From Fibrobacteria bacterium (GTDB lineage Bacteria; Fibrobacterota; Fibrobacteria; UBA11236): 64,000 bases of DNA. The notes beneath the pieces were generated by a model. The model had not been told where the DNA came from. It ran no database searches and saw nothing but the letters and a program-made list of their open reading frames with translations. Position numbers and translations under genes: made by a program. Location of the stretch: assembly GCA_043745805.1 (NCBI GenBank), contig JAYTSD010000004.1, positions 94,543 through 158,542 of the forward strand. Reading direction: 5' to 3'. Every line of letters begins with the position of its first letter. Positions within the stretch are counted from its first letter, which is position 1. Shown piece by piece: positions 10,582 through 25,822 of this stretch.

Positions 10582-11009
10582 GTTTCAACTCACGCACTCA
10601 TAAAGAGCGCGACATAAGTCCACTAAAGGCGGCTTCGATGTATTCCTGTTTCAATCCATGCGCTCGTGAAGAGCGCGACTTGGCTGTTACCTGTTTTTCC
10701 ACCGTGTTGGTCGGTTTCAATCCACGCGCTCGTGAAGAGCGCGACACGAACAATAGGCGTACCAACCAGACGCCTTTTGGTTTCAATCCACGCGCTCGTG
10801 AAGAGCGCGACGATGTCTTTAACTGTCTTCAGCGCCGCTTTATTGGTTTCAATCCACGCGCTCGTGAAGAGCGCGACTACCTTTCCATTTATATCAGCCG
10901 ACAATTCAAAAGTTTCAATCCACGCGCTCGTGAAGAGCGCGACTTTATGCTTTCTGGTTTAACATCCGAGAGATCGAGTTTCAATCCACGCGCTCGTGAA
11001 GAGCGCGAC
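10582..11009 (-). CRISPR. Type I-C CRISPR array: 7 repeats of 32 bp and 6 spacers of 34 nt. Transcribed repeat GTCGCGCTCTTCACGAGCGCGTGGATTGAAAC. The leader-distal repeat (10582-10613) is degenerate.
   Basis: Exact repeats at 10714, 10780, 10846, 10912 and 10978, plus a 1-mismatch copy at 10648 and a degenerate copy at 10582. The internal hairpin GCGCTC/GAGCGC and the GTGGATTGAAAC 3' end match the I-C repeat family. Spacers are uniformly 34 nt. Confidence 0.92.
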
Positions 11010-11176
11010 TCCTTACTTCTAAGCTTAGTTAATACCTGCACTTAGAAGTGTAGATCCGCTGACCTACGTTAAATATGTAAGAGATTATTTCAAAGAACTC
11101 AAGAGTGCCCAAATGCGCTCTGATTTCGGTGCGCTAAGCCTATGTGATTTTGTGTCAGCTTTAGGTTAGCGATTGA
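11010..11176 (-). promoter_or_regulatory. CRISPR leader (between cas2 and the first repeat)
   Basis: Non-coding 167 bp between the cas2 stop and the leader-proximal repeat. The degenerate repeat lies at the opposite end of the array, as expected. Confidence 0.5.
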
Positions 11177-11467
11177 TTAAATGATCAAAGGACCATGAAG
11201 ATCTGCTGTAGGCTTTGAACCAAAATGTTCGACTCGACGTTCCCAATTACTTCCTAGATAATAAAATCGAAGACTATCTTCCTCCGCCTTATAAATCGCA
11301 AGAAGTTTACTTTTTAATAGTTCCCATTTTGCAGGTTCAACTTCGCATTCAAAAACCGAAAATTGTGCGCGTTGTCCATAATCTTCGCAACATTTCGCAA
11401 TACGACGTAACCTACGTTTACCACCTAAAGATTCGGTTTTAACGTCATAGGTTACCAGCACTAACAT
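11177..11467 (-). CDS. cas2: CRISPR-associated endoribonuclease Cas2
   Basis: 96 aa with MLVLVTYDV...FSVFECEV motifs. Confidence 0.9.
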   Translation of the reverse strand: MLVLVTYDVKTESLGGKRRLRRIAKCCEDYGQRAQFSVFECEVEPAKWELLKSKLLAIYKAEEDSLRFYYLGSNWERRVEHFGSKPTADLHGPLII

Positions 11468-11470
11468 TTA

Positions 11471-12499
11471 TTATCTCCAAATATAAGGTGGATAATAATC
11501 CATATCTCCGCGAATAGTTCGAGCTAGCAATAATGCCTGCACATGAAATAAAAGACCCATCTCCACTTTTTCATTTAAGAACGGATGAGTGATTTCTTCA
11601 CTTTTTCTTTTTTGATAAGCAATAAGAACTGCTTTTCGTGTACCGCTTTCCATTTCAACAGCACCATTTGGCGAAATAATAAAACCATTACTATCAACTT
11701 GTTTGAGGTTAACCAAGCTAAGTGCTAATCGATCTGCAAGACAAGCACGAAACTCTTCAATAATGTCTAAAGCTAAACTAGCGCGACCGGGTCTATCCGT
11801 ATGAAGAAATCCTGCCGATGGATCAAGTCCCACACCTTGTAAAGCAGATTCAATATCATTAGTAACAAGCGCATATATAAAAGACAGTAAACAATTTATT
11901 CTATCAAGAGGAGGTCTTCGGTTACGTCCTGAAAAATTAAATTCTGGTTTTTGATGAAGTATAAGGTGATTAAAAACACTAAAATATACGCTTGCGGATT
12001 CCCCTTCAATACCGCGAGCTATCTCAATATCCTGACAACTTTTAACTTTTTGCAGATAATGTCCAAGTCGAGTAATTGCGATTTGAATTTTTCCTTCATC
12101 TTCAAATTCGTGATTGCGTAAGGCACGCATTAACACGGCGCGAGAATTTCCAATCTTTGCAGCCAATAAAGCTTGAACATAGCGAATGCTCTGTTGCTTA
12201 TCATCGGCAATACGATATTGATGTTTGCGAAGCAAAATATTTCCACTTTGCGGCCCCACAACACGACCAAGAAACCTTCCTCTTTCAGTAAAGAAGGCTA
12301 ATCCAACATTATTTTCAGCACAAAATCCAATAGCGAAAGGAGAGATTAAAACATTTCCAAAACACACTACATTCCAAATACCGTGAATAGGAATTTGAAA
12401 AACTTTTTTACCATCGTGTTCAATAATTAAGGTCTCGCGTTGTTTATGCACATAACTGCCTTGGGTCGTTATGTATAAGGTATTGAGATGCTTTTTCAT
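11471..12499 (-). CDS. cas1: CRISPR-associated integrase Cas1
   Basis: 342 aa in Cas1 context, with a 4-nt overlap with cas4. Confidence 0.9.
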   Translation of the reverse strand: MKKHLNTLYITTQGSYVHKQRETLIIEHDGKKVFQIPIHGIWNVVCFGNVLISPFAIGFCAENNVGLAFFTERGRFLGRVVGPQSGNILLRKHQYRIADDKQQSIRYVQALLAAKIGNSRAVLMRALRNHEFEDEGKIQIAITRLGHYLQKVKSCQDIEIARGIEGESASVYFSVFNHLILHQKPEFNFSGRNRRPPLDRINCLLSFIYALVTNDIESALQGVGLDPSAGFLHTDRPGRASLALDIIEEFRACLADRLALSLVNLKQVDSNGFIISPNGAVEMESGTRKAVLIAYQKRKSEEITHPFLNEKVEMGLLFHVQALLLARTIRGDMDYYPPYIWR

Positions 12500-13158
12500 A
12501 AATCAAATAGGGACTGAAAATATTTTGATGAATGTGATATTGGATTCCAAGGCAGGCAAATATTTTGCAGCGAACATGCTTTACATTTTTCTCCAGGTTC
12601 AGCGGGTGGTGTTTTCCCTTCGCGAAATAAAACATGTAAGCGTTCAGCTGTTTCAAACGTTTTTTGACGCAATTCAGCATCAAGTAATACAATTTGTCTT
12701 CGCCGAGTTTGATGATAAAAAAGGTCTGCTTCTGTTAATGAAATATTAAACGCTTCTTCTAAACAAATTGCTTGAGCGCAGAGTTGTACATTGTCGTAAG
12801 GACCAGTTTTAACCTTTCCACGTTTATATTCTACAGGCCTTGGGAGCCAAAGACCCGTTAGTCCAAACTTTTCCAAACCGATTCCATGGATAGTATCTTT
12901 TGTGGTTCGACGAAATTCAACCACATCCGCTTTACCACTTACTTTTAGCTGCTGACTTTTGATAGGAAGAGATCGCGTAACATACAAGTCACTGCGTTTT
13001 TCATCCTTACCACTATCAACTTTTTCGTGCAAAATTTGACCTTGTATTGTGAACGTATTTTCCTCCCATGCGCGCTCCAAATGGATCAATGCGCATTGAC
13101 GCTCGCAGAACAAAATGTGCTGGAGCGCCGAAATGGGGAGGAAATCTTCTTCGTTCAT
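12496..13158 (-). CDS. cas4: CRISPR-associated exonuclease Cas4 (RecB-like nuclease with a C-terminal Cys cluster)
   Basis: 220 aa with a CERQCALIHLE N-terminal Cys and a C-terminal CKACSLQNIC Fe-S motif. Confidence 0.85.
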   Translation of the reverse strand: MNEEDFLPISALQHILFCERQCALIHLERAWEENTFTIQGQILHEKVDSGKDEKRSDLYVTRSLPIKSQQLKVSGKADVVEFRRTTKDTIHGIGLEKFGLTGLWLPRPVEYKRGKVKTGPYDNVQLCAQAICLEEAFNISLTEADLFYHQTRRRQIVLLDAELRQKTFETAERLHVLFREGKTPPAEPGEKCKACSLQNICLPWNPISHSSKYFQSLFDL

Positions 13159-13191
13159 TATGGCTATTGCTATTTTAAATAGCGATATTGA

Positions 13192-14133
13192 TCACGCCAT
13201 ACGAATTAATTTTACACCATTTCCCAAGTCTCTATTTGATCCTACATCTGGAAGTGGTTTACCATCAAATAGAACGTCATAATCATTAAATGATCTAGCT
13301 GGGCCAGTACTTCCTTCTCTGCGCTTGACTTCAGCACGTTCAAATAAAGTATGAGCGGGAGAATTACCAAGGGCAGAACTGTGTTCAAATACAAGGAGTG
13401 GTCGTGTGGACATAAGGCCTCTTGCAGCCGATCGATCATGCTCAAACATATTTTTTAGTGCTTCCCAAAAAACTGTAAGATCATCTTCAGTAAATTCTGT
13501 TTGTGCTGCGAGATGCGCCGAGATGAATCCATGTGAGCGATAAAGCCCATACGGAATTGTAAATTTACGACCCATAGTACGATTATCTCCACCTTGCTTT
13601 TCAGCATCAGCTTCAGTAGTTACCGCCATACGAGTGATGCTATGCTCTAACACTACAACTGGCTCGATTGAACGAGCAAAAGTCATTTGAATAGGTCCAC
13701 GAACTTGTCCAGCATTTGCACCTGTACTCATAACAGCACCGAATGTTCGAATATCAAAATATGTTTTGCACATACGTGATCGGCCCTTGCTTATTTCGCT
13801 TCCTTGAGCATCACCTTTACTATTACGTTTCTTCCCGTCTTTAATATCCTGAGGTTCTTTCTCAAGGTCTATTCCAAGATCAGCGTAGGCACCAGCTATT
13901 TTTTGATTTAATATAGCCTTCTCTTTTACGAAAATATCATACGTTGGTTTACCTTCATTTGTAAGTGAAACAAAATTCCGCACCTTGCGCTTGAGGCAAA
14001 CATCTGTTACTAGCCCCATTCCTGTTTCTGCATCTATACGAGGAAGATTACCGGCATCTGGATCGCCATTTGGATTTCCATCTTGCACATCGAATAATAA
14101 AATGAAATCGTAACGTTTGTTAATAGTGCTCAT
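13192..14133 (-). CDS. cas7: Cas7 (Csd2) type I-C backbone subunit
   Basis: [28 protein letters not shown] signature of Csd2. Confidence 0.9.
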
Positions 14134-14139
14134 GTTTAA

Positions 14140-15870
14140 TTATCCTTCTTTTGTTGGTTGTTCTGGTTTTTCAGATTTTGTGAAAAATGCTTGACGTTGA
14201 TGATAATAACCAATCGCAAAACGCGCTTGATCTTCCATAGATAGATGACTTGGCATATCTGGAAGCATTCCTCCAAAAATTTCCCCAAGGCGTTTTTCAT
14301 GTGCGCCTCGAAATGCATGATTTTCCAATTTCGCTAAATGATGATTCTTTAGTTTTAGTAGTTGCGGAAAAACACTTACTGGACTAGAACTTGCTGCTCC
14401 ATAAAAGCGGTCACGAATAGTAGCATTAATTCCTGGTTGAGCATCTTCTTGAATTTTTTCGAGCGCAGCAAAAAGTCTTCCTAGCCTATACCCGGGGTTA
14501 GTATTAGTGGAATCAAGTGCCATAGTTATCTCCTGCTGTATTGAATTGAGTTGTATGTTTCGTTTTCGATTAAGGCAACCTTTCAAAAGAGATGCCTGTG
14601 TACGTTTCACTTCACGGTTGGCCCTGATTCGGCGAACAACTTGTTGTAAAAGTGTTGTAGGAAATGGTCCACCTGTTAGGATAGAGCGCATGACGTTTCC
14701 CGCCAGATTTGGAGGAATGTTTTCAATTTTATTTTGAAGCGCTATATCAGAAAGCAAGAAGAAGAGAGCGTAACTTCCTTTGTCTCCATTGGGCTTCACA
14801 ATTTCTAAGTCTTTAAAATATTTTTGAAGATTTTCAGAGAAATCAGCTACTGTACCAGTATGCCAAAACCGTACAGATACTCTAGCCGCATTGGGCGAAA
14901 GTCCTAAAACAAAAAAACGTGCGTCTTCATTTGGAAGACTAGATCCTGTATAGGGACTTTTCAAAAGCGTTTCAACTGCTTTTATATCTCTATCGGGATC
15001 ATCTTTACTCACACTCCAGTAAGAAAAAAAATCTTCCTCTAGCGATGTTTTTTTGTCGGACCAAAATACTGTAGTAGCATCGCCAACCTGAACTTTGTTT
15101 TTCGAATCGCGACTGAGTAGCATATTTAGAGCTGTCGTATAGGCAAAAGTTGCAAAGTTACTGATCGGAGCGTTCTTATTTTGTTCTTTTCCATAGGAAC
15201 GGAAAGCCGATAAATTAAAGGAACTTATTGCTCCTCCTGCTGGTTGCGCATCTCGAACACCTTTGATCGCTGGATGGAGTTGCGATATAGGCGATTTCTT
15301 TCCCAATATTAGGCAAATGCCTTCGCTCGATGAATTAATCGAAACGATACTAGAAGCGAGGGTTTCGCAAATTGAAGTTGATTCTGATCCGTCAATTCTA
15401 AATACAACATTAGAATTGGCATTAACCTCGCACATCTCTTTCCAGATGTTAGCATCTTTGGAACTGGCTTCGATTTGTAAGATAGGATTAGAATCGAGAA
15501 ATCGAATAAGGGCATCGCGATCAGGATGATCAATAAGATTGGTAATCAAACGATTTCGAAAAGCTAAATGTCGAGATGCAGCATCATCTCTTCCGCGGGG
15601 GTTGGCTCCAAGCGCATATTCAATATTATCCCATAAGAGATTAGCTTTTATACCTGATGCTCTTTTTTCTCCGGCTGGAACTAAGAAAGAACGAGTTCGC
15701 CTTTTTTTTCCTTCCCCTTCTCTAGTATCTTCTAATGCTATAAATTTTCCGTCACGATTTATTACTACTACAAATGAGATATCTTTCCATTCAAAACCTT
15801 CGGGTGCGATTCCGCTTTCTGGATCTAATGCCTTTCTTTGATAATAATCATAAAGAGCTTGCAGAATCAT
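14140..15870 (-). CDS. cas8c: Cas8c (Csd1) type I-C large subunit
   Basis: MILQALYDYYQR N-terminus typical of Csd1. 576 aa. Confidence 0.9.
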   Translation of the reverse strand: MILQALYDYYQRKALDPESGIAPEGFEWKDISFVVVINRDGKFIALEDTREGEGKKRRTRSFLVPAGEKRASGIKANLLWDNIEYALGANPRGRDDAASRHLAFRNRLITNLIDHPDRDALIRFLDSNPILQIEASSKDANIWKEMCEVNANSNVVFRIDGSESTSICETLASSIVSINSSSEGICLILGKKSPISQLHPAIKGVRDAQPAGGAISSFNLSAFRSYGKEQNKNAPISNFATFAYTTALNMLLSRDSKNKVQVGDATTVFWSDKKTSLEEDFFSYWSVSKDDPDRDIKAVETLLKSPYTGSSLPNEDARFFVLGLSPNAARVSVRFWHTGTVADFSENLQKYFKDLEIVKPNGDKGSYALFFLLSDIALQNKIENIPPNLAGNVMRSILTGGPFPTTLLQQVVRRIRANREVKRTQASLLKGCLNRKRNIQLNSIQQEITMALDSTNTNPGYRLGRLFAALEKIQEDAQPGINATIRDRFYGAASSSPVSVFPQLLKLKNHHLAKLENHAFRGAHEKRLGEIFGGMLPDMPSHLSMEDQARFAIGYYHQRQAFFTKSEKPEQPTKEG

Positions 15871-16592
15871 TTGCGCACCTCATCGCTGTCCCACGACGGT
15901 AGATTGATTATTCCATTTTTTATGGTTGGTCGAAAAAAAGTAGGTTTGGGATCGGTTGCATCTGAAAAATCCATATCATATAACATGAATCCTAAGTCGC
16001 GTGATTCTGCTATTGGTGGATTCTTAGCTTGCTCTTCAGCTAGATTAGCTTCGCTTAATAAACGGAAAGCACAACTAAATTCACGACAACCTAAATAAGG
16101 TTGATTAAAACATTGTCCTTTAGTGGCTCTGCGCTCAAACATTGCATTGTATTTACCTGGATTCTCATCTTTAGCCCAATCAATACGCTCTTCAACCTCC
16201 ACCAATTCTTCTGAAACTGGGTTCATTATTTTAGGACGCTTCGGTGGTGGTATAAATTCCATTTCAGCATAGAGACGGTAAGCGATATCTCGAAGAAAAA
16301 GCCCTGCACGTTGTTGCCGTTCATCTTCAATTAGAATACCATCACTTCCTGAAGAAGCTATTTTACCGATTTCGTTACGACGCACAGATATCCATCGAAT
16401 TGGATTTAATACTTCAATTTTATTAATTCTCCATACTATTGCGGGCTTCCAAAATATAGCTTCGAAAATAGCACGCGCTGCCGATGGAGTAATAACATCA
16501 TAACTGACGCGCTCTACTTTCATTTCTGGGCGCGTGAAGCAAGCATAGTCGCCTCGAACTTCTAAACAAAATGATCTATTTTTGTAAATCAA
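15867..16592 (-). CDS. cas5: Cas5d (type I-C Cas5 with pre-crRNA processing role)
   Basis: LEVRGDYACFTRPEMKVERVSYDVITPSAARAIFEAIFWKP signature. ATGA overlap with cas8c. Confidence 0.9.
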   Translation of the reverse strand: MIYKNRSFCLEVRGDYACFTRPEMKVERVSYDVITPSAARAIFEAIFWKPAIVWRINKIEVLNPIRWISVRRNEIGKIASSGSDGILIEDERQQRAGLFLRDIAYRLYAEMEFIPPPKRPKIMNPVSEELVEVEERIDWAKDENPGKYNAMFERRATKGQCFNQPYLGCREFSCAFRLLSEANLAEEQAKNPPIAESRDLGFMLYDMDFSDATDPKPTFFRPTIKNGIINLPSWDSDEVRK

Positions 16593-16613
16593 AACAAGGA
16601 CCGTCCTTTCTTT

Positions 16614-18899
16614 TCAATAAATAAATTCCGTACCATCATACACTGGCCCATCAATGCGTAAGCCAAAAGTGTAGTCGTACAAGCCGGAAACACATTGTGC
16701 CCATAATCCAAGAGCACCTTCTGGGCCTATCACTTCCATGATGACCCCTTGATCTCGAAGTTTTTGCCAAACAATTTGAGGCACATTAACTGTGAATCGC
16801 TGAAGACGCCGCATCCGCTCCCGAGTCGGACCATATTTTGTGACTTCTTCTATAATTTCCTGACTAGTAAATTTACTAGTCGCATGCCACACCACAATTC
16901 CACGATACCCTTGCTCATCTATAAGCTGATACCACAAGGCAGCAGACCGAAATTGAAACTGACATCGTCCTGCATCCACTATCAAATGCTGTTTGAATAT
17001 ATCTTTACCAAAATCGTTAACACGTCCATAAAAAAAATGGAAATAGCGTTGAAAAGCTTCCGGTGCTAAACGATGAGCCAGTTCTGGTGCAGTGCGCATC
17101 ACTTCTGCGCCAGCATCTTCCCCTTTACGCAAAAGACCTTGCGGGGATGGCTTTGGTGGATGAAAGATTACTACGTCACCCAGTTTCCCATCCAAATTTA
17201 ATCGACCTTCTCGATTGCATCGTCCAGCAGCTTGAGCGATACTATCAAGTCCGGCCATTGCCCGATAGACAACAGGAAAGTCAATATCCACTCCCGCTTC
17301 GACAAGTTGGGTACTTATGACTCGTAAAGGATTTCCTTTTTGCAAATCGTCTTTAATCTGAGCCACCACCTGTGAGCGATGAACTCCACACATAAGTGCG
17401 GATAAATGCACTGGTGTTTCTCCAGTATGTTTCTGGACAGCTTCCCAAAGGTCACGGCAATCTTGCCGTCGATTAACAATGCACAATACTTGTGAGTGCT
17501 TCGCAAGGGATTGTGACAAAGTCGCCCAATCCACTCGTTCATCACTGTATACACGAAGGGCTACTCGCCTAAGAGTGTGCGCCAAATTAATAGGATCGCG
17601 AATGATTTCACGTACATTATTTATACCATTAAATTTAACTTTGCCGGATCCAATATCCCCAATCAAAGCAGGCTGAGTAGCTGTACACAATACAACCGTG
17701 CATCCAAAATGAGCCACGAGACCTTTTAAGACCGAAAGAGTAGGAGCTAGTTTTTCCGGAGGTAACATCTGCGCTTCGTCAAGGATAATGACTGAATTTG
17801 CAAGATTATGAAGCTTTCTACATCGACTAGTTCGTGCTGCAAATAATGACTCAAATAATTGCACATTAGTAGTAACTACAATAGGTACATCCCAATTCTC
17901 AGATGAAAGTCGTCCTTTTGGTGTCTCTCGATCTAAATCGAGATTACTATGATGCTCCAGAACATTTACTGATCCAAAAATCTTTATGAGCTCTTGTGCG
18001 GTCTGCTCAATTATACTTGTAAATGGAATTGCTACTACTATACGACGCTTATTATGCTTCAGAGAATGTTCTAATGCAAAGGCCACAGAAGAAAGAGTTT
18101 TCCCACCACCTGTTGGCACTGTTAGAGAAAAGAATCCTGATTCCAGCTTTCCTGCCCCTATACAATCTTCTAATACTTGTCTGCGAATTTTGTTTACAGG
18201 AAGATCAAAGAGTTTTTTTTCTTGAAGTTCAATATTCCTTTCTGCATTCCTAATATTAAAAACATCTAAAAGCGCCTTTAGGTTAGTGGTAGAACCACGC
18301 AAAGCCGATTTTTTCGGATCCATAAAGGCTTCTGTGTCTAAAAAATCGGCATCAACTAATGAGGAAAAAAGCATTCTAATCCATAAATGTGCATGCTCAG
18401 GATCAGGAGGTGGCCTGGATTTGGGCATTGCTGCATTTAAAATTTCTTCGGGTATCGGAGCTTTTTTTGTTTCTTCTAAATGCTGTTTATCATTTAATCT
18501 CTCTTCAAGCCCTCGACCTTCTGCCTCCGCTTTTAACCAATCAGGGAGACCCGCATGATGCCCTGCAATTAAATACGCCAAGATTTTCCCTACTCCCCCG
18601 TGACGTGATACAGCATGAATGGCACCCGCTGTACTATGATCAACCTTGCCTGGTGTATTTTCCAAATGAGCGTCTGGATTATAGCCGCTAGCAGAACGAA
18701 TATAGGTTTGAAAATCAGATTTATACTTTCCTAAGTCATGCCAAATTCCAGCTAAGAACGCCCATTCAGCAGAATCAAATGTTGATGCAAAGTTTTCTGC
18801 TAATGTTGCTACTGCTTGAAGATGTTCTTCCAAAGAATGCTGGATCCAATTCCCATTCTCATCTTTCCGAACATGAGCTAAATAATTTGACATACCCAA
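16614..18899 (-). CDS. cas3: Cas3 HD-nuclease/helicase
   Basis: N-terminal HD motifs (HSLEEHL, WHDLGKY), Walker A VPTGGGKT and a DEAQ box. 761 aa. Confidence 0.9.
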   Translation of the reverse strand: MGMSNYLAHVRKDENGNWIQHSLEEHLQAVATLAENFASTFDSAEWAFLAGIWHDLGKYKSDFQTYIRSASGYNPDAHLENTPGKVDHSTAGAIHAVSRHGGVGKILAYLIAGHHAGLPDWLKAEAEGRGLEERLNDKQHLEETKKAPIPEEILNAAMPKSRPPPDPEHAHLWIRMLFSSLVDADFLDTEAFMDPKKSALRGSTTNLKALLDVFNIRNAERNIELQEKKLFDLPVNKIRRQVLEDCIGAGKLESGFFSLTVPTGGGKTLSSVAFALEHSLKHNKRRIVVAIPFTSIIEQTAQELIKIFGSVNVLEHHSNLDLDRETPKGRLSSENWDVPIVVTTNVQLFESLFAARTSRCRKLHNLANSVIILDEAQMLPPEKLAPTLSVLKGLVAHFGCTVVLCTATQPALIGDIGSGKVKFNGINNVREIIRDPINLAHTLRRVALRVYSDERVDWATLSQSLAKHSQVLCIVNRRQDCRDLWEAVQKHTGETPVHLSALMCGVHRSQVVAQIKDDLQKGNPLRVISTQLVEAGVDIDFPVVYRAMAGLDSIAQAAGRCNREGRLNLDGKLGDVVIFHPPKPSPQGLLRKGEDAGAEVMRTAPELAHRLAPEAFQRYFHFFYGRVNDFGKDIFKQHLIVDAGRCQFQFRSAALWYQLIDEQGYRGIVVWHATSKFTSQEIIEEVTKYGPTRERMRRLQRFTVNVPQIVWQKLRDQGVIMEVIGPEGALGLWAQCVSGLYDYTFGLRIDGPVYDGTEFIY

Positions 18900-18944: not shown

Positions 18945-19913
18945 TCAAACATATTTTTTCGCCGCCGCCTTCAACGTTCCCAACACTTTCGCTCGCAAAA
19001 AAAGCGGATCTACTACTTCCACCTCATCCCCATACCGCAGAATATCCATTAACAATTCCCTTTCATCCCCAAAAGGAAGTTTCAAACGATAACTTCCATC
19101 AGCCAACCACTCTCCAATTTGCTTTGGATGCCATTGCTCTTGCGATACAAATCTCGCTGCTGTTTTATGAAAAATTAATTCTGCTATATGCTTGGCCTTA
19201 CCTGCAAAAATTCCGTACGACTCGGTAAAGTGATCCTGCAAAATATTTTTATCCTCAGAGCGAGCTTTGCTTTTTAAAACTTCTACTCCAGTAATTCGAT
19301 TTAAAGCAAATGATCGAAGACCCTGCCGAAAATGACACCATGCGTCCAAATACCAATTGTCGCGATAACGAACTAAACTTTGTGGACATACCGTGCGCAG
19401 GGTAGCGGTTCCATCGCTACCTCTTATATAATTCAACTTTAATTGCTTACGAAGGAGTACACCTTCGGCGATAGATTTAAAAATACCCTCGCCAATCTTT
19501 CTTGTGCCCATAGGCAAAAGACGTATGCGATTTTCCCAATTGGAAAGTGGAATTTCATTTTCATTTAATAGCTTGGTAAGTTTTTCACGCAAAGGAGCAA
19601 ATTGTTCTTGCAGTATATCGGCGTGCATTTCGCGTAAAATATTTTCTAAGGAAATTAAGGCGGCTAATTCCTCGCCACTAAACCATAAACCAGGTAACTC
19701 ATAAGTTTCCGCATCTGCAAGATCATAACGATACCCCTTATATTTCCTATCGCACAGAATGGGCGCGGCCAGCTTGTCGCGCATGAATTTAACTACACGA
19801 TAAAAAGTAGCCGAAGAGCAATGCAATTCTTTTTGTATTCGCATTGCGGGCGTAGCATATCGATGTTGCATTAAATAGCGATGCAAAGCATAAACCATTT
19901 CAAATCGTACCAT
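18945..19913 (-). CDS. WYL-domain transcriptional regulator (N-terminal HTH, central WYL domain), 45 bp upstream of cas3
   Basis: HTH-like N-terminus (SSATFYRVVKFMRDKL). A literal DNWYLDAW motif within a WYL-like domain. Same strand as the cas operon. Confidence 0.7.
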   Translation of the reverse strand: MVRFEMVYALHRYLMQHRYATPAMRIQKELHCSSATFYRVVKFMRDKLAAPILCDRKYKGYRYDLADAETYELPGLWFSGEELAALISLENILREMHADILQEQFAPLREKLTKLLNENEIPLSNWENRIRLLPMGTRKIGEGIFKSIAEGVLLRKQLKLNYIRGSDGTATLRTVCPQSLVRYRDNWYLDAWCHFRQGLRSFALNRITGVEVLKSKARSEDKNILQDHFTESYGIFAGKAKHIAELIFHKTAARFVSQEQWHPKQIGEWLADGSYRLKLPFGDERELLMDILRYGDEVEVVDPLFLRAKVLGTLKAAAKKYV

Positions 19914-19966
19914 GAACCGGCCCTCATCTAAGGAATATGAATGCTAGTAACTAATTGAAATATCAA

Positions 19967-20029
19967 CTTCATACATTTTGATTACAAATGAATTATTTGC
20001 TTGCGTGTTACTCGGCACTTCGACAGGCT
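19967..20029. repeat. 63-bp direct repeat, copy A (1 mismatch to copy B), upstream of the WYL-cas operon
   Basis: CTTCATACATTTTGATTACAAAT[G/A]AATTATTTGCTTGCGTGTTACTCGGCACTTCGACAGGCT is present at 19967-20029 and 24598-24660. Confidence 0.85.
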
Positions 20030-20039
20030 TGCATGTCCC

Positions 20040-20918
20040 TTATTCGGCTTCTTCGTAGTAGTAGGAATAGTCAATTCCCTTCATGAACATTTCCCGGTCA
20101 TGAATTTTATCGGTTAATGACTTGGTGATCAATTTTTTCAGCATGGAGTTATCCGTCACACTGAGTCTCACGGCTTCCAGATATTTATTTTTATTGATCT
20201 TGCTCCAGTCAACACAGCGGGCATGTTTTTTCTTTAGCATCAAATCCAGCCAGATCCTTGCCGTTCTGCCATTGCCTTCCATGAAAGGGTGGGCAATATT
20301 CATTTCGGTATATTTGTTGATGACATTTTCAATCGAATCTTCCAGCATTTTTTCTATTGCAACTAGCGTAGTTGGCAGAAACCCGGCTGCGGCAAATTGA
20401 AAACCACCTTTGCTGATATTTTTTGTGCGAATTAAACCTGCAAAATCATACAAGCCGCCAAAAAGATAGGCGTGTATTTGCTGCAAACCCTTAACTGTAC
20501 CCACTTCAATACTGTCGATAAAAGAACTTTCAAAAAGAGCATAGGCTTTTGATTTGCTCTTGCCGTCGATCGTTTCTTCGCTGTATAAAAACCACTCAAT
20601 AAAGCGATTTGACTTAGTGTTGGGAAGGTTTTTTGCGAGCGTTATTACACCATCGGAATCAATCACATCGGAAAGCCGTTTTTTTCCATCAGGTGCCAAC
20701 AATTTCAACTGGTTAGTGCCACTACCCAGTTGAAGGTTTTCTTTTTTCAGCTTTGCTTTTAAATATTTCCAGTAATTACGGTTTTTTTCGTAATTTTCCT
20801 GGTCATTTAATACACCCACAATGTCCAGTACGGAAAACCACCAACGAGACCCTGTATCGTTCCACACCGCGCGGACTTCTCGGTCATTAAAAAACCGGAT
20901 GGAAATTTTCTCTTTCAT
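20040..20918 (-). CDS. Fic/Doc-family protein (AMPylation/phosphocholination-type toxin fold) with a Bro-N/DinD-like N-terminal domain
   Basis: Perfect Fic motif HPFMEGNGRTAR. N-terminus RFFNDREVRAVWNDTGSRWWFSVLDIVGVL resembles the Bro-N fold. Confidence 0.8.
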   Translation of the reverse strand: MKEKISIRFFNDREVRAVWNDTGSRWWFSVLDIVGVLNDQENYEKNRNYWKYLKAKLKKENLQLGSGTNQLKLLAPDGKKRLSDVIDSDGVITLAKNLPNTKSNRFIEWFLYSEETIDGKSKSKAYALFESSFIDSIEVGTVKGLQQIHAYLFGGLYDFAGLIRTKNISKGGFQFAAAGFLPTTLVAIEKMLEDSIENVINKYTEMNIAHPFMEGNGRTARIWLDLMLKKKHARCVDWSKINKNKYLEAVRLSVTDNSMLKKLITKSLTDKIHDREMFMKGIDYSYYYEEAE

Positions 20919-21745
20919 GATTTGCCACCCGTTTCGAGCAATTTTCGTTCTGCTATCCGCTCGCGCACCTCAATGAGTGCGTTGTGCAGTTTTTGTTCAA
21001 GCAATTCTTTAGGTGGAAGATTTGTCCAATATTCGGCAACCATTATGTTGTCTTTTTGCATATTGAGCAGTTCCACAAATGCAAAGGAATTTCCCAATTC
21101 CAGGATGAAAAGCTCCAATTCTTTTAGAATTGCATTTTCTAATTCATTTTCAAGGTAGCCTTCTTTCAGACCCAGAAAATCGAGAAAATAAGGATCTTTA
21201 AAATTTCCAGTAAGGTGATTCGCATTCGCTAAGGTTAGTTTTGTATCCGCAATTTCGGTTCGTTCAAATGCTTTACGTTCTATTTGATCCTTTAAAACCC
21301 GCTTGCTCCAGTGTAATTCACTCGCCATGCGGGCATAAAAAAAACGAGCTTCAGGAGGTTTTAAAGGAATTAGCAATAAAAAATGCGACTAGGTTAATTG
21401 TCGTGCCAGTGGAACGACAATCTCGAAATCAGAAAAAACCTCCGCAAACTGCATCATTCGACGAAGATTTTTCGCCTCAAAGCTTTTGCCATAAAGCAAG
21501 ATTAGCTCCTGCGCCAGAGACTCCACAACCTGTTTGCCGTATTCGGCCCGCTCACCCTGTAAAATAGATTCGTTGATCCGTTTACCCACATGCCAATAGG
21601 TTGTTGTAAGAGCATTGTTGACCGCTACAATCGCCTGACGACGACCTTGATCAATAAGCACCTTTAAATCGTGCACCAAATCACCATTGACTATTACAAA
21701 GTTTTGCGCGCTTATTGCAGAGTCAGCTTTTATTTCGTCATTCAT
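20915..21745 (-). pseudogene. DUF1016/YhcG-like (PDDEXK nuclease-family) gene interrupted by one in-frame TAG (21389-21391) at a conserved Trp position
   Basis: ORFs 21389-21745 and 20915-21376 are in the same frame. The junction reads ARQLT*SHFLLL where family members have LTWSH. Otherwise full length. Confidence 0.7.
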
Positions 21746-21758
21746 AATTTAATCCTAA

Positions 21759-22357
21759 TTATCCATTAGTTTCCGGCTTAGGAAAGGTGAGCAGCATTTC
21801 ACGGTAGTAGTTGTATTGCTTTTTGCGGGCTATAAGCTCGGTGAAGGTGTCCAAAATGCGGACGATTTCGGATTGGATTTCGAGGGATTTTTTCGGGTTG
21901 TCGGGGCATGGAACAGGGACTCGGTACTTGTCAGTATCTGGAGTTGCAATCTGTGGCATTTGCATTTTGCTGCCGAGATTCTGAAAGTACGGTTCATTCA
22001 GTTTAAGAAAATGATATAAATACTTGATATGGATAAACTCATTTTGTGAATGATATGACCACATTTCATTCTTGTGCGAAAATGGTTTATCGTAATATTC
22101 AAACTCAATATTACCACGAGATTTAACGACGATAGAAGGCTCTCTATTTATATCCTTCTCTGGAATATCGTTAAAATCGAAAAAGGAAATTGTTTTGCCA
22201 CCTGCAAAAATTTTTAATGGGGCATCATCTTTGTGTAAGACCTTCATTTCACTAGCGGTAATTTTTGTGCCTTTAGTACGCACAAGCACCCCCCCAAGGC
22301 CTTCCACTCTACCGCCACACCTTCAAGCAGTGCTTTCATTGGATTCTGATTACTCAT
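21759..22357 (-). pseudogene. hsdS: Type I R-M specificity subunit HsdS, single-TRD form, frameshifted at a poly-C7 tract (22288-22294)
   Basis: Conserved HsdS start MSNQNPMKALLEGVAVEWKALG is in one frame. The downstream TRD ORF (MEGLGGVLVRTKG...) is in another frame across a C7 run. Confidence 0.6.
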
Positions 22358-23210
22358 GCTTGCCTCTATGCATTTTTTTAACCCCTAGGTCATCGGTAAG
22401 CAAACGCATTTGGTGTATGGCTGTACGGTTCAATAGCTTTATTCTTTCTGATTGTGGCAATCCCTGCTGTATTAAATGAGCATTCAGGTTTTCAAGGTTG
22501 GCAAGACACACCAGATGTGAGACATTTGCATAATCTCGAATGTTACCATTTTTACCATGGTTCTCATCACGCCATTGCTTTGCGGTTTTCCCGAACAGTG
22601 CCATATTCAGCAGATCAGCCTCTGAAGCATACACAAGATTCATTTGCTGATTGGTTAATTCCGCCGGGATCAGGTTTTCTTTGATGGCATCGGTGTGAAT
22701 TCGGTAATTGATTTTAGTGAGTTGGCGTTTGAAATCCCAACCAAGTTTTTTCTGCTCCTCTTCTTTGAGTCGCTGGAACTCTTTAATGAGATAAAATTTC
22801 AGTTCCGGAGAAATCCAGGTAGCAAATTCAAAAGCGATATCCTTATGAGCATAGGTACCGCCATAGCGTCCAGCCTTGGAAATAAGTCCTATCGCATTTG
22901 TTTTTTCAATCCATTGTTTTGCAGAGAGAACATAGCCATTACTGCCACTTTCATTTTTAATGTAACTGAATTCCGTTAGATTAAAATTCGGGTTGCTCAC
23001 GCGTTCCCAAATCCCCATAAATTCAATAGTGTAGCGGGTACTAAGCCAATGAGAAATAACAACACCGGTATGCTCAGCGTTCTTATGTTTGGCCAAATCC
23101 GTCAGCGAGATATAATCTTCAGCCCCCTGATTAAAAAAGGTCACATCACTGCCGATTATTTCAATTTTTTTGTTTTTATCCATTATAGAAGCTTCCTTAA
23201 CGGCTTCCAC
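22350..23210 (-). CDS. KilA-N domain protein (inserted within the hsdS region)
   Basis: About 280 aa, with an architecture typical of KilA-N proteins found in type I R-M loci. The likely true start is MDKNKK at 23183. The C-terminus ...GKHE* runs into the conserved hsdS 5' segment. Confidence 0.55.
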   Translation of the reverse strand: MEAVKEASIMDKNKKIEIIGSDVTFFNQGAEDYISLTDLAKHKNAEHTGVVISHWLSTRYTIEFMGIWERVSNPNFNLTEFSYIKNESGSNGYVLSAKQWIEKTNAIGLISKAGRYGGTYAHKDIAFEFATWISPELKFYLIKEFQRLKEEEQKKLGWDFKRQLTKINYRIHTDAIKENLIPAELTNQQMNLVYASEADLLNMALFGKTAKQWRDENHGKNGNIRDYANVSHLVCLANLENLNAHLIQQGLPQSERIKLLNRTAIHQMRLLTDDLGVKKMHRGKHE

Positions 23211-23260
23211 TCCACCGTCGCCCCATCAAGCAGTCTCTCCATTAAATTCTGATTACTCAT
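23183..23260 (-). pseudogene. Second, truncated copy of the hsdS conserved 5' segment ([25 protein letters not shown])
   Basis: About 67-bp similarity between 22300-22366 and 23204-23270, with the last 25 bp identical. Confidence 0.45.
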
Positions 23261-24002
23261 GCTTGCCTCCTAAATTCCCCTCTTGAGGGGTGGCAGGCTG
23301 CAAGACTGACGGGGTGGATGCATTAAGCATGTAAAAGACAGAAGAATCCACCCCGCCCTTCGGGCACCGCTCAAGAGGGGAATTTTTTTGGGAACTAAGT
23401 TCAGCAGAATTCTTAAGCGTACTCGCTACGGCGTTTATTTCATCTTCACGTATTTTAATAGCTGCAACAACTTTTTCTTTTACAGAAGAGATAAACTTCT
23501 TAACTTCCAAATCAGTGAAATGAATAACTTCTAATTGCAGGCCGCGCAAAATTGCTTCGCGTTGTGCGTCGTACTCCTGTTTAAAATCGTGACTACTCCC
23601 ATCTATTTCAAAGACCAGTCCCAATTCGGGAATAAAAAAATCGACGATGAAATTTCCAATAATGACTTGCCTGTCTATATCATAGCCCAAGGATTTTTTG
23701 TATTTGAACGCTTGCCAGAATAGTACTTCTGCCAGATTTCCAGCTTTTCGAAGCTCTCTGGATCTTTGAGTGAGTTTTTTATTTTTTGGGAGCGCTAAGT
23801 AGTTGAATATCCGCCTCTCAGGAGGGGAATTAAGAAAATGCGACTCTATGTATTTATTCCCCTCCATTGGAGGGGTGGCCGACAGGGCGGGGTGGTAGAA
23901 ATTGGTTTTAAATGTTTGGGTTATCGACCCAAGAATCTTTGGATATACCGTATAGAACTTCTGGATGGTTTCGACGAGGTGGTTAAAATTTAGGATGTTC
24001 AT
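23253..24002 (-). CDS. DUF559 (Vsr-like endonuclease fold) protein with probably non-native N- and C-terminal extensions
   Basis: Core [23 protein letters not shown]...EIDGSSHD...VIHFTDLEV matches DUF559. The ORF tail overlaps a GC-rich hairpin cluster. Confidence 0.55.
23277..23393. repeat. Nested GC-rich inverted repeats (TCCCCTCTTGAGGGGTG ... CACCGCTCAAGAGGGGA, with inner GGGGTGGAT...ATCCACCCC). A related motif CCCCTCCATTGGAGGGGTGGC occurs at 23865-23885.
   Basis: Read directly. These are GC-rich palindromic motifs on both sides of the DUF559 core in otherwise AT-rich DNA. Confidence 0.5.
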
Positions 24003-24408
24003 CCTTCACTGCCATTTTCAATCTCAGCAACAATGGCATCAATATCCGCGCGGAGTTTGTCAATTTTCTTCACTGTGATTTGTATCTCTGAATTAAGTTT
24101 TGTGATATTTATCAATTCGCGTGTGTCTTCGGCAACCACATAGGAGCTCACAGATAGATTGTATTCATTGGCTTCAATGGCATCAAAGTCAACCGATTTC
24201 GCCATATACTCAATATCGACTTTACGATCGAAGGCATCCATGATCTGAGCAATATGATCATCGGTGAGGGTGTTGTTATTTGTCTCTTTTTGAAGAGCGT
24301 GCCGAGTACATATTGCTTAAAATCCCATCCATCGATGGAGCCACGCACGTCGTTTGCAATTTTCCAAATTTGGGATTGTAATTCGGCTCGTTGTGCGGCA
24401 CTTGTCAT
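23999..24408 (-). pseudogene. hsdM: Type I R-M methyltransferase HsdM remnant: about 35-aa N-terminus, frameshift, then about 60-aa C-terminus, with >1 kb deleted internally
   Basis: [39 protein letters not shown] (HsdM N-terminus) and [10 protein letters not shown]...EIENG (HsdM C-terminus) lie in different frames only about 400 bp apart. Confidence 0.65.
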
Positions 24409-24597
24409 TTGTAAAACTCCAGTTTATATAAGAAAATAAATATAGCCTCGTTCCAAGTTGGTTTTCAGGTTTTTCTTTCCGGCGCGTGGATTTATTCTTT
24501 TTGTTAGGAGCGGTTTTTGAAATAAATTTTTTAATGTGGAGCATTGCATGCAACTATCGCTTGCATGAATCGTTTATCATTCATTCACAAAAAAAAT

Positions 24598-24660
24598 CTT
24601 CATACATTTTGATTACAAATAAATTATTTGCTTGCGTGTTACTCGGCACTTCGACAGGCT
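24598..24660. repeat. 63-bp direct repeat, copy B
   Basis: See copy A. Confidence 0.85.
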
Positions 24661-24722
24661 CAGTGACCGAGCAACACGTTCGGGCATAGTGTATACTTCG
24701 GTCACTGAGCCTGTCGAAGTGA
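24647..24722. repeat. Perfect 24-bp-arm inverted repeat (CACTTCGACAGGCTCAGTGACCGA / TCGGTCACTGAGCCTGTCGAAGTG) with a 28-nt spacer. The left arm overlaps direct-repeat copy B. A third partial arm lies at 24847-24880.
   Basis: Read directly. No ORF covers it. Confidence 0.7.
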
Positions 24723-25006
24723 CCAAGATGCAACCGAAATGTTTACGTTCGCAAATTTTCGAATATGTAAGGGCGCTGTGAACGAACCCCACATGCATAT
24801 CGAAAGGGTAGACGAGGATCACGCGAGTTAACACGGTATTTCGTATCTCGGTCACTGAGCCTTTGTCGAAGTGAACGAAACGTGAGTGTTAAATCGTGAA
24901 GCCGAGGCTAGGGGAAGACTTTCCCCTTTATCAAGTAGCCATACATAACCAAGAAGAAAATTTCCCTGCTAGCCAAAACTTCGCTTTTATAGCATAATAT
25001 CAACTT

Positions 25007-25822
25007 ATGGAAACACTAATCGAAGCCCCAATAAATGTCGTGATTTTTTTTGCCGGAATTTTTGGTTTAATGGTGGGTTCATTTTTTAATGTCGTAATAT
25101 GGCGTATGCCTCGTGAGGAAAGCGTGGTATTCCCTCCTTCGCATTGCACGCGTTGCGGCTACAAAATAAAGTTTTATGAAAATATTCCAGTACTCTCTTG
25201 GCTATGGCTAAAGGGCAAATGCAAAAGCTGCGGCGTCTCTATTGGATTCATTTATCCCTTGGTAGAAATATTTACGGGCATTTGTGCGGCGCTTTGTGCC
25301 TATTATTTTTTATATCACCCGACACTCTATCCCTTAGATTTCATGCTCGGCATGACTTTTTTGATTTTGGTGAGCATCCCTATTTTTGTTATCGACTTTA
25401 AACATTATCTCATCCCTGATGTTTTGGTTTTTCCTGGCATGTTGATTGGGTTAGGATTAAGTTTTTTACGGGGAGGACAAACTCCTTTGCAGTCATTATT
25501 AGGGTTAATCGGGGGTGGCGGATTTCTTTGGTTAATCGGATTTGTGTCGAGCAAAATTTTAAAAAAAGAAGCCATGGGTTTTGGCGATGTTAAACTTTTG
25601 GCCATGTGCGGAGCTCTCTTTGGGGTGAAAACTGCACTTTTAGGGCTGATGGCGGCATCTTTTTTAGGAACTTTTTTTGGGCTGCCTATGATGTGGTTGC
25701 GACGCTTAAATTCCGAACGGCAAATCCCCTTCGGGCCCTTTATATGCTTGGGTGTGATGCTTGCCGGTTTTTTTGCGGAACGATTTTTACTCTGGTATTT
25801 AGGCCTCGGATCGGGTGAATAA
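25007..25822 (+). CDS. pilD: Type IV prepilin peptidase (A24 family)
   Basis: N-terminal CxxC...CxxC zinc motif (CTRCGY...CKSCG) and an 8-TM profile. Confidence 0.8.
   Translation: METLIEAPINVVIFFAGIFGLMVGSFFNVVIWRMPREESVVFPPSHCTRCGYKIKFYENIPVLSWLWLKGKCKSCGVSIGFIYPLVEIFTGICAALCAYYFLYHPTLYPLDFMLGMTFLILVSIPIFVIDFKHYLIPDVLVFPGMLIGLGLSFLRGGQTPLQSLLGLIGGGGFLWLIGFVSSKILKKEAMGFGDVKLLAMCGALFGVKTALLGLMAASFLGTFFGLPMMWLRRLNSERQIPFGPFICLGVMLAGFFAERFLLWYLGLGSGE

Follow-up and report, generated by a model that had tools for sequence, protein, structure and literature searches.

Integrated islands are classically recognized by near-perfect direct repeats, tens of base pairs long, on the two sides of accessory DNA. 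A repeat of this kind, 63 bp in length and hereafter called R, occurs beside a CRISPR-Cas operon in a 64-kb stretch of DNA from a Fibrobacteria bacterium (contig JAYTSD010000004.1), and its two copies bracket a fragment of a type I restriction-modification (R-M) operon. The whole stretch, referred to as the window, comes from a metagenome-assembled contig of 277 kb. Like the attL and attR sites of islands and prophages, R is near-identical over tens of base pairs, has sharp edges, and encloses accessory, horizontally acquired genes; unlike them, it is accompanied by no integrase or excisionase, its target is a hairpin, its cargo is a truncated operon, and no second occurrence is known. The locus is a known kind of thing, namely, a junctional direct repeat around a horizontally acquired, decaying fragment of defense genes within a defense island, and we put at roughly 0.5 the probability that R is a junctional duplication, left as the scar of one recombination event, and not a mobile or reusable element.

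Other described systems resemble parts of the locus. Homology-facilitated illegitimate recombination, which reportedly occurs in natural transformation, combines a one-sided homologous anchor with a nearby illegitimate join and involves no dedicated recombinase. A join inside the anchor would duplicate the stretch from the join to the end of homology, as is seen here, but the present join shows no microhomology and the donor allele that the process requires is hypothetical. Repetitive extragenic palindromic (REP) sequences and bacterial interspersed mosaic elements (BIMEs) are said to have served as the join-points of tandem duplications in Salmonella. They share with the present locus the alternately oriented, imperfect, intergenic palindromes and a rearrangement breakpoint inside one unit, but the units here occur at one place in 64 kb, no REP-associated tyrosine transposase (RAYT) is present in the window, and the outcome is a 63-bp duplication around an insert rather than a tandem gene duplication.

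The cargo has its counterpart in the type I R-M operons with embedded genes (Fic, RhuM, KilA-N, DUF559, DUF1016/YhcG, and PrrC-type). The order hsdM, accessory genes, hsdS, and Fic matches, whereas hsdR is absent here, hsdM has an internal deletion and a frameshift, hsdS has half the usual size, and DUF1016 is disrupted. Finally, as with WYL regulators of the BrxR/CapW type, a WYL-HTH gene heads a defense operon and a palindrome lies between the upstream DNA and that gene. In the BrxR island of pEFER, two related boxes control two promoters, and these boxes are 11-bp repeats that partly match each other (PMC9122601), in contrast to the 63-bp duplication with its putative operator at this locus.

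Structure of the repeat and its junctions

Copy A of R (19967-20029, 63 bp) lies 54 to 116 nucleotides (nt) upstream of the start codon of the WYL gene and 10 nt downstream of the Fic stop codon. Copy B (24598-24660, 63 bp) lies 190 to 252 nt upstream of the start of an hsdM remnant and runs unbroken into a complete hairpin cluster. The two are identical at 62 of 63 positions, the sole difference being G19990 in copy A versus A24621 in copy B, and a rough estimate of the chance expectation for such a pair in 64 kb is 5e-24. Copy A, with the G, is placed between WYL and TGCATGTCCC-Fic, and copy B, with the A, between the leader of the hsdM remnant and CAGTGACC. A 37-nt subpattern of the repeat, allowed up to 3 mismatches, occurs only at these two sites of the window and 0 times in shuffled sequence, and blastn-short detected no diverged third copy of the 63-mer in the 64 kb. 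Both copies have sharp edges, with 200 nt of flanking DNA on either side aligning no better than shuffled sequence, and an older, larger duplication with residual similarity in its flanks was ruled out by this shuffle-level alignment. An earlier reading made from the sequence without database searches (the sequence-only reading) had reported this repeat at exactly these positions and at this identity, with only accessory genes between the copies and with copy A upstream of WYL-cas3 and copy B upstream of the hsdM remnant, all of which we confirm.

The repeat is composite, with 37 AT-rich nt followed by 26 nt (CGTGTTACTCGGCACTTCGACAGGCT) that form the left arm and most of the loop of a hairpin. 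At copy B, this hairpin is complete (unit 1, 24635-24678, an imperfect palindrome of the form CGTGTTACTCGGCAC-TTCGACAGGCTCA-GTGACCGAGCAACACG) and is accompanied by two units of the opposite orientation, unit 2 at 24698-24721 and unit 3 at 24848-24874 (TCGGTCACTGAGCCTTTGTCGAAGTGA, with a 2-nt insertion). The three constitute a local REP/BIME-like cluster of alternating orientation within the divergent intergenic region. Units 1 and 2, being oppositely oriented, build a perfect 24-bp inverted repeat with a 27-nt spacer (24647-24721), which has a fold energy z-score of -8.6 as RNA and -7.1 as DNA. Copy B continues through units 1, 2, and 3, whereas copy A ends (...GACAGGCT) within the loop of a truncated unit 1. 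Because unit 1 is cut at copy A and complete at copy B, copy A is a partial copy of the copy-B context, and its end in the loop of unit 1 places one breakpoint of the event in a hairpin. By the same layout, copy B appears to sit in its original context.

The hairpin units have no other occurrence in the 64-kb window (blastn-short). A miniature inverted-repeat transposable element (MITE) or an extended palindrome was ruled out, as the palindrome does not reach past the 24-bp arms and is not repeated elsewhere in the window. The 21-nt hairpin core (ACTTCGACAGGCTCAGTGACC) matches exactly in 24 contigs of IMG/VR (loci L084-L107; for example, L085 4653-4673 and L089 2332-2352), in about five unrelated flanking contexts, against a chance expectation roughly estimated at well under one match. 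In these viral contigs, the core is not palindromic and appears to be coding, forming part of Thr/Ser/Gly-rich repeats (TSTGSVTG-type).

The bracketed segment (20030-24597, minus strand; 4,568 bp) is a fragment of one type I R-M operon that extends from the leader to 10 nt past the Fic stop codon and is without hsdR. In a relative whose Fic is 86% identical (contig L112), the order is hsdM (516 amino acids [aa]), KilA-N, DUF559, an unnamed open reading frame (ORF), an hsdS fragment, Fic, and hsdR (1032 aa), with hsdR beginning 13 nt after the Fic stop codon; a similar contig (P0129) also has Fic between hsdS and hsdR. Since hsdR follows Fic in these intact relatives, the cassette is a truncated operon with its cut end at the repeat boundary. 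Independent Fic loci (L109 and L111; 86% nucleotide identity) are homologous to the window from the Fic ATG through the first 10 nt after the stop codon (GGGAYATGCA). This homology ends at window position 20030, and copy A begins at 20029, so that the repeat directly borders cassette-derived DNA where an intact operon would have the beginning of hsdR. On the other side, similarity to relatives starts at the hsdM start codon; no homology to the hsdM leader was found in any fetched locus or plasmid, leaving the copy-B junction without an external reference.

The closest Fic relatives with DNA at hand (L108-L111; 89% aa identity) are solitary and without hsd genes. They follow a DJ-1/PfpI gene and stand beside housekeeping genes, a DDE transposase coming next in L109, and what they conserve spans the Fic ATG through the first 10 nt after the stop codon, limits that the homology in the window shares.

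The ends of the insert (ATTTTTTTTG... and ...GGGACATGCA) are not inverted repeats, and its 4,568 bp are fully filled by genes of the R-M operon and their leader, with no space for an integrase remnant. The sequence-only reading had noted the absence of integrases and transposases, and Pfam scans of all cassette ORFs and of most window ORFs of at least 150 aa agree, with no integrase, excisionase, or transposase domain detected. A target-site duplication of a transposon or insertion sequence was rejected on the grounds of its size (63 bp versus 2 to 15 bp), the noninverted ends of the insert, and the lack of a transposase. Also rejected was an integron cassette with attC sites: there is no integrase, the hairpin is complete only at the copy-B end, and R folds no better than shuffled sequence.

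An independent assembly bears on whether both copies are real. Three Logan contigs of sample SRR23617279 (L001, L002, and L003) are 100% identical to the window, and each ends exactly 30 nt into a 39-mer that is identical between the repeat copies. Such ends are those of a k=31 graph at a two-copy (two-in/two-out) repeat, indicating that both copies exist in the reads. Each of the four arms around the repeat node has a 100% identical counterpart in this sample; the k=31 contigs break inside the repeat and do not resolve the pairing of left with right arms. The cassette contig, L003, covers the window from 24651 to about 20439 and stops in the middle of Fic, and the junction of Fic with copy A is thus outside the independent contigs. 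Exact-protein look-ups matched only contigs of the same sample, and they gave no record of the exact Fic protein, in contrast to neighboring proteins. The end of L003 inside Fic may reflect strain variation in this gene or k-mers common to other Fic genes of the sample.

The sequence-only reading had further raised the prospect of a reusable docking sequence for defense cassettes that might mark other islands. Exact-match scans of three large collections, from which the host organism is evidently absent, came back empty: the 22-mer TTACTCGGCACTTCGACAGGCT, which spans the junction of the AT-rich and hairpin parts, is matched neither in 185,579 species-representative genomes (596 Gb) nor in JGI (Joint Genome Institute) metagenomes, and IMG/VR contains no match to TTATTTGCTTGCGTGTTACTCGG or CATACATTTTGATTACAAATRAATTA, which come from elsewhere in the repeat. 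With two copies in the window and no exact match in these genome, metagenome, and viral collections, neither the docking role nor the marking of other islands is upheld.

Possible origins of the repeat

Cassette genes have close relatives in other phyla and resident genes do not, a difference in homology that fits a recently imported cassette beside a resident WYL-cas locus. Fic is 91% identical in amino acid sequence to its best database match and 85 to 91% identical to database proteins, some of which are named Syntrophaceae, and hsdM and hsdS are about 73% nucleotide-identical to enterobacterial plasmids. For WYL, the best homologue in other organisms shares 50% identity and is the lead gene of an unrelated MNT/HEPN islet, and the best matches of the prepilin peptidase to the right of copy B are at most 46% identical and come from metagenome-assembled genomes of Fibrobacterota, Zixibacteria, and Marinimicrobia (genome representatives). 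A JGI metagenome contig of 60% G+C (L119; GH2 66% identical in amino acid sequence) was the one relative detected with synteny, which covers about 10 genes starting at the peptidase and going rightwards, and has unrelated genes to the left of the peptidase, the break in synteny falling in the intergenic region that holds copy B and the hairpins. Amino acid identity of housekeeping proteins to the nearest relatives is 46 to 66%, and these relatives, L119 included, are too distant for an empty site to be identified. The host is, by these similarities, a poorly sampled lineage of the FCB (Fibrobacterota-Chlorobiota-Bacteroidota) group.

The account that we favor would begin with a prepilin-peptidase gene, the hairpin cluster, AT-rich promoter-proximal DNA, and WYL-cas3. 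The intergenic region would then have received 4,568 bp of a type I R-M operon that is widely transferred, namely, the leader and hsdM through Fic without hsdR, the Fic-side join landing in the loop of the first REP-like hairpin. The insert would thereby have become flanked on each side by the same 63 bp of local sequence, in which 37 bp of AT-rich DNA adjoin the left arm and loop of the hairpin. Because the insert lacks ends of its own and no recombinase gene is present, we favor host-mediated recombination over site-specific integration, most likely by a route that needs no dedicated recombinase. Under one option, a homologous anchor in the peptidase/hairpin/R region would be combined with an illegitimate join at the hairpin, as in homology-facilitated illegitimate recombination; under the other, a circularized fragment already carrying R would enter by a single crossover. 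Copy A would retain whatever promoter or operator WYL-cas3 uses, and copy B would be a passenger upstream of a dead hsdM. One mismatch over 63 bp, beside several inactivating lesions over 4.6 kb, is in keeping with one event of fairly recent date and neutral decay thereafter. We infer both the enzymology and the direction of the event, that is, cassette into resident WYL-cas locus, the latter from phylogenetic affinities only. Such a scar would matter little beyond the locus, as one small data point on the growth of defense islands: it would offer a single-base view of a promiscuous R-M fragment stacked beside CRISPR-Cas, with one breakpoint in a hairpin and no recombinase involved.

Several points weigh against this account. 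Classical illegitimate joins usually show 3 to 10 nt of microhomology, and none was found at the junction of Fic and copy A (GGGACATGCA/AGCC versus CACTG/AGCC, the slash marking the junction). Both the anchor and the crossover routes need incoming DNA with R, i.e., a same-species donor with an R-M allele at this place, and none has been seen. There is no empty site or alternative allele at hand, and the direction is one that we infer. The agreement at 62 of 63 positions could have been kept through selection or gene conversion, and slow evolution of the Fic and HsdM families could account in part for their higher identity to distant taxa.

The form of the locus invites an explanation by site-specific integration, according to which the copies would be a true attL/attR pair, the cassette a small integrative islet whose integrase acts in trans or has been lost, and R the 63-bp segment of identity between attP and attB. 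The near-identical, sharp-edged direct repeat around accessory DNA is as expected of such a pair, and a circular form together with an empty site would fit the k=31 graph topology equally well, but we consider this origin unlikely: neither the cassette nor the scanned window ORFs contain an integrase, an excisionase, or a remnant of either; the cassette is a truncated operon that ends at the normal Fic/hsdR boundary and does not resemble an element with ends of its own; integration would have targeted an intergenic hairpin and not a tRNA or a conserved gene, the window having no tRNA; and the pieces of R that were sought in genomes, metagenomes, and IMG/VR are without an exact match. The lack of a recombinase is no obstacle if the 63 bp are a templated filler, copied from the copy-B region up to the hairpin during a break repair that swapped hsdR for WYL-cas or the reverse, by template switching akin to MMBIR (break-induced replication mediated by microhomology) or fork stalling and template switching (FoSTeS). 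PMC2621351 describes the template-switch model. One end of the copied segment does lie within a very stable hairpin, and source and copy are just 4.6 kb apart; yet no microhomology is visible at either junction, and the process is documented mainly in eukaryotes and in stress-induced amplification in E. coli, so that we hold it to be distinctly unlikely. It is a close variant of the junctional duplication that we favor, and one genome cannot separate the two. An assembly artifact, in which a cassette from another strain, locus, or circular molecule was threaded in via the shared 39 to 63 bp, is suggested by the metagenomic source of the contig, by the unconfirmed pairing of the arms at the break of the Logan contigs in the repeat, and by the position of the Fic/copy-A junction beyond the Logan cassette contig, which stops at about 20439. 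It is made very unlikely by the presence of all four arms of the repeat node at 100% identity in one sample, by the implausible 4.6-kb circle without a replication gene that any other threading needs, by the G/A difference, which lets an assembler with k of at least 41 phase the left and right arms, and by the uniform G+C content across the junctions.

Explanations that give R a role of its own meet different evidence. The sequence-only reading had proposed a duplicated promoter or 5' untranslated region module with a TTGTAA/TGATAT pair. On the minus strand, TTGTAA (-35) is indeed inside the repeat, but TGATAT (-10) lies beyond it at 19965 to 19960, in unique DNA flanking copy A, and copy B has ATTTTT at the corresponding place. 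The score of this pair is 7/12, and a promoter scan with a threshold of 9/12 reports nothing within either copy, so this part of the proposal fails. The hsdM remnant has a promoter-like site of its own (24468 to 24439), about 130 nt downstream of copy B and about 30 nt upstream of the start, and neither leader, nor R, folds better than shuffled sequence, as would a structured or riboswitch-like leader. By itself, then, the repeat does not make up a complete promoter or 5' untranslated region module. Given its position at -54 to -116, copy A may nonetheless overlap the true promoter or operator of WYL. R contains a 15-bp AT-rich palindrome of 7+1+7 (19985-19999 in copy A, CAAATGAATTATTTG; 24616-24630 in copy B, CAAATAAATTATTTG), a possible candidate operator, which is perfect in copy B and has one arm position spoiled in copy A by the difference at 19990. 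That R was duplicated under selection, as a WYL operator with an upstream promoter element that puts DUF559, KilA-N, and Fic under the same WYL control as cas3, would draw on this palindrome, on the location of copy A 54 to 116 nt upstream of WYL, where WYL/BrxR-type regulators bind, on the precedent of the two related boxes in the BrxR island (PMC9122601), and on an identity of 62/63 kept despite the decay of neighboring genes. It is an improbable origin, however, as the palindrome has 4 window matches with up to 2 mismatches versus 1.74 expected, barely above chance in AT-rich DNA; the -10 is absent from R; copy B is at least 190 nt from an hsdM remnant with its own promoter-like site; downstream of copy B, a frameshifted pseudogene comes first; and a third of R is half a hairpin unit, which would be odd for a regulatory module. 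A more ambitious proposal, which we regard as highly doubtful, takes R and the hairpin cluster as the fixed upstream boundary of a defense slot, with a type I R-M operon and WYL-CRISPR-Cas as alternative alleles of the population that start right after R, and R containing the WYL operator. Any docked cargo would then come under WYL control, and the window would represent two cargos stacked by recombination between alleles. We found nothing that points to R as a common boundary or operator of alternative defense cargos; the locus would matter more if population data gave R either of these roles. Least credible of all is a dispersed repeat family (MITE, REP, or similar) that happens to flank the cassette. 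The last third of R does fall within a REP-like hairpin unit with three local copies, and the 21-mer hairpin core recurs in about five unrelated phage contexts in IMG/VR, but those matches look coding and lack the hairpin, neither R nor a hairpin unit occurs in the other ~59 kb of the window (blastn-short), no terminal-inverted-repeat structure extends past the 24-bp arms, and the 22-mer of R is unmatched in the 596 Gb of genomes and in the JGI metagenomes.

Content and decay of the bracketed cassette

All genes of the cassette are on the minus strand. Behind the 189-nt leader (24409-24597), which holds the promoter-like site, comes the hsdM remnant, or mini-hsdM (23999-24408), in which the first 39 codons are fused to the last ~98. 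Against hsdM of L112, only the first 119 nt and the last ~280 nt align, the remainder having been lost in a 1,136-nt internal deletion that joins ...GTLF to KKETNNN... at LF/LF microhomology, and the remnant carries an additional -1 frameshift in an A5 run at 24287-24291. A gene for a DUF559 protein with a Vsr-like endonuclease fold (23253-24002) has its start overlapping the stop of the remnant by 4 nt. It is followed by a KilA-N domain gene (22350-23183; 277 aa, as called on L003), a half-size hsdS (21759-22307; 182 aa) with one Methylase_S domain and hence a single target-recognition domain, a DUF1016/YhcG pseudogene split into two ORFs (20915-21745), and an apparently intact Bro-N/Fic gene with the motif HPFMEGNGRTAR (20040-20918). 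The pseudogene matches only positions 4 to 46 of the 157-position DUF1016 nuclease-domain profile, and most of the nuclease domain is gone. The gene content between the copies is therefore as the sequence-only reading listed it, with the refinements that DUF1016 is split, that the supposed hsdM remnants are one deleted and frameshifted hsdM, and that hsdR is absent, not being present anywhere in the window. From the state of its genes, the locus is dead as a restriction system, and only Fic, KilA-N, and DUF559 look intact.

Mini-HsdM is a recurrent pattern. Many contigs encode in-frame proteins of 113 to 236 aa with differing deletion end-points, in which roughly 37 residues at the beginning and ~100 at the end are retained (for example, P0243, P0244, P0251-P0253, P0257, P0258, and P0265, and loci L114-L118). 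P0244 has an identical GTLF/KKETNNN junction at 63% identity; in L116-L118, the gene downstream of mini-hsdM and in overlap with it is RhuM, and neither hsdS nor hsdR follows. By keeping both ends of hsdM in frame, these deletions may allow the embedded accessory gene to remain transcribed and translationally coupled, or else mini-HsdM proteins may be functional scaffold proteins.

A second direct repeat within the cassette (22296-22366 and 23199-23269; 71 nt, 82% identical) brackets the KilA-N gene. It consists of the ribosome-binding site and the first ~20 codons of hsdS (MSNQN...VEWK), such that KilA-N is flanked by the 5' remnant of one hsdS allele and by a second, half-size hsdS. An insert between copies of a duplicated 5' region has a geometry like that of the 63-bp repeat on a smaller scale.

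The core of DUF559 is flanked on both sides by hairpins of the motif ATTCCCCTC...GAGGGGAAT (23272-23292/23365-23385 and 23811-23834, with the motif also at 23856). These hairpins are translated within an extended ORF of 249 aa, as PPMEGN and PQEGN peptides. The DUF559 homologue of L112 has just 102 aa and no hairpin motif. The arrangement suggests a small palindrome-flanked insertion around DUF559.

Genes and features around the cassette

No tRNA genes and no Rfam matches were detected in the window, and its G+C content is flat at 38 to 44%, uniform over the junctions and without a compositional island signal. To the right of the cassette and divergent from it, the first backbone gene is the A24 prepilin peptidase (25007-25822, plus strand). 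To the left, 53 nt separate copy A from the gene for the WYL/WCX/HTH regulator (18945-19913, minus strand), which is the first gene of the cas operon. The type I-C cas genes that follow (11177-18899, minus strand) form a complete set of cas3, cas5d, csd1/cas8c, cas7, cas4, cas1, and cas2. Beyond them is a CRISPR array on the same strand (10582-11043), with 7 repeats at a 66-nt period. The degenerate repeat is the one farthest from cas2, as would be expected if the leader is at the cas2 end.

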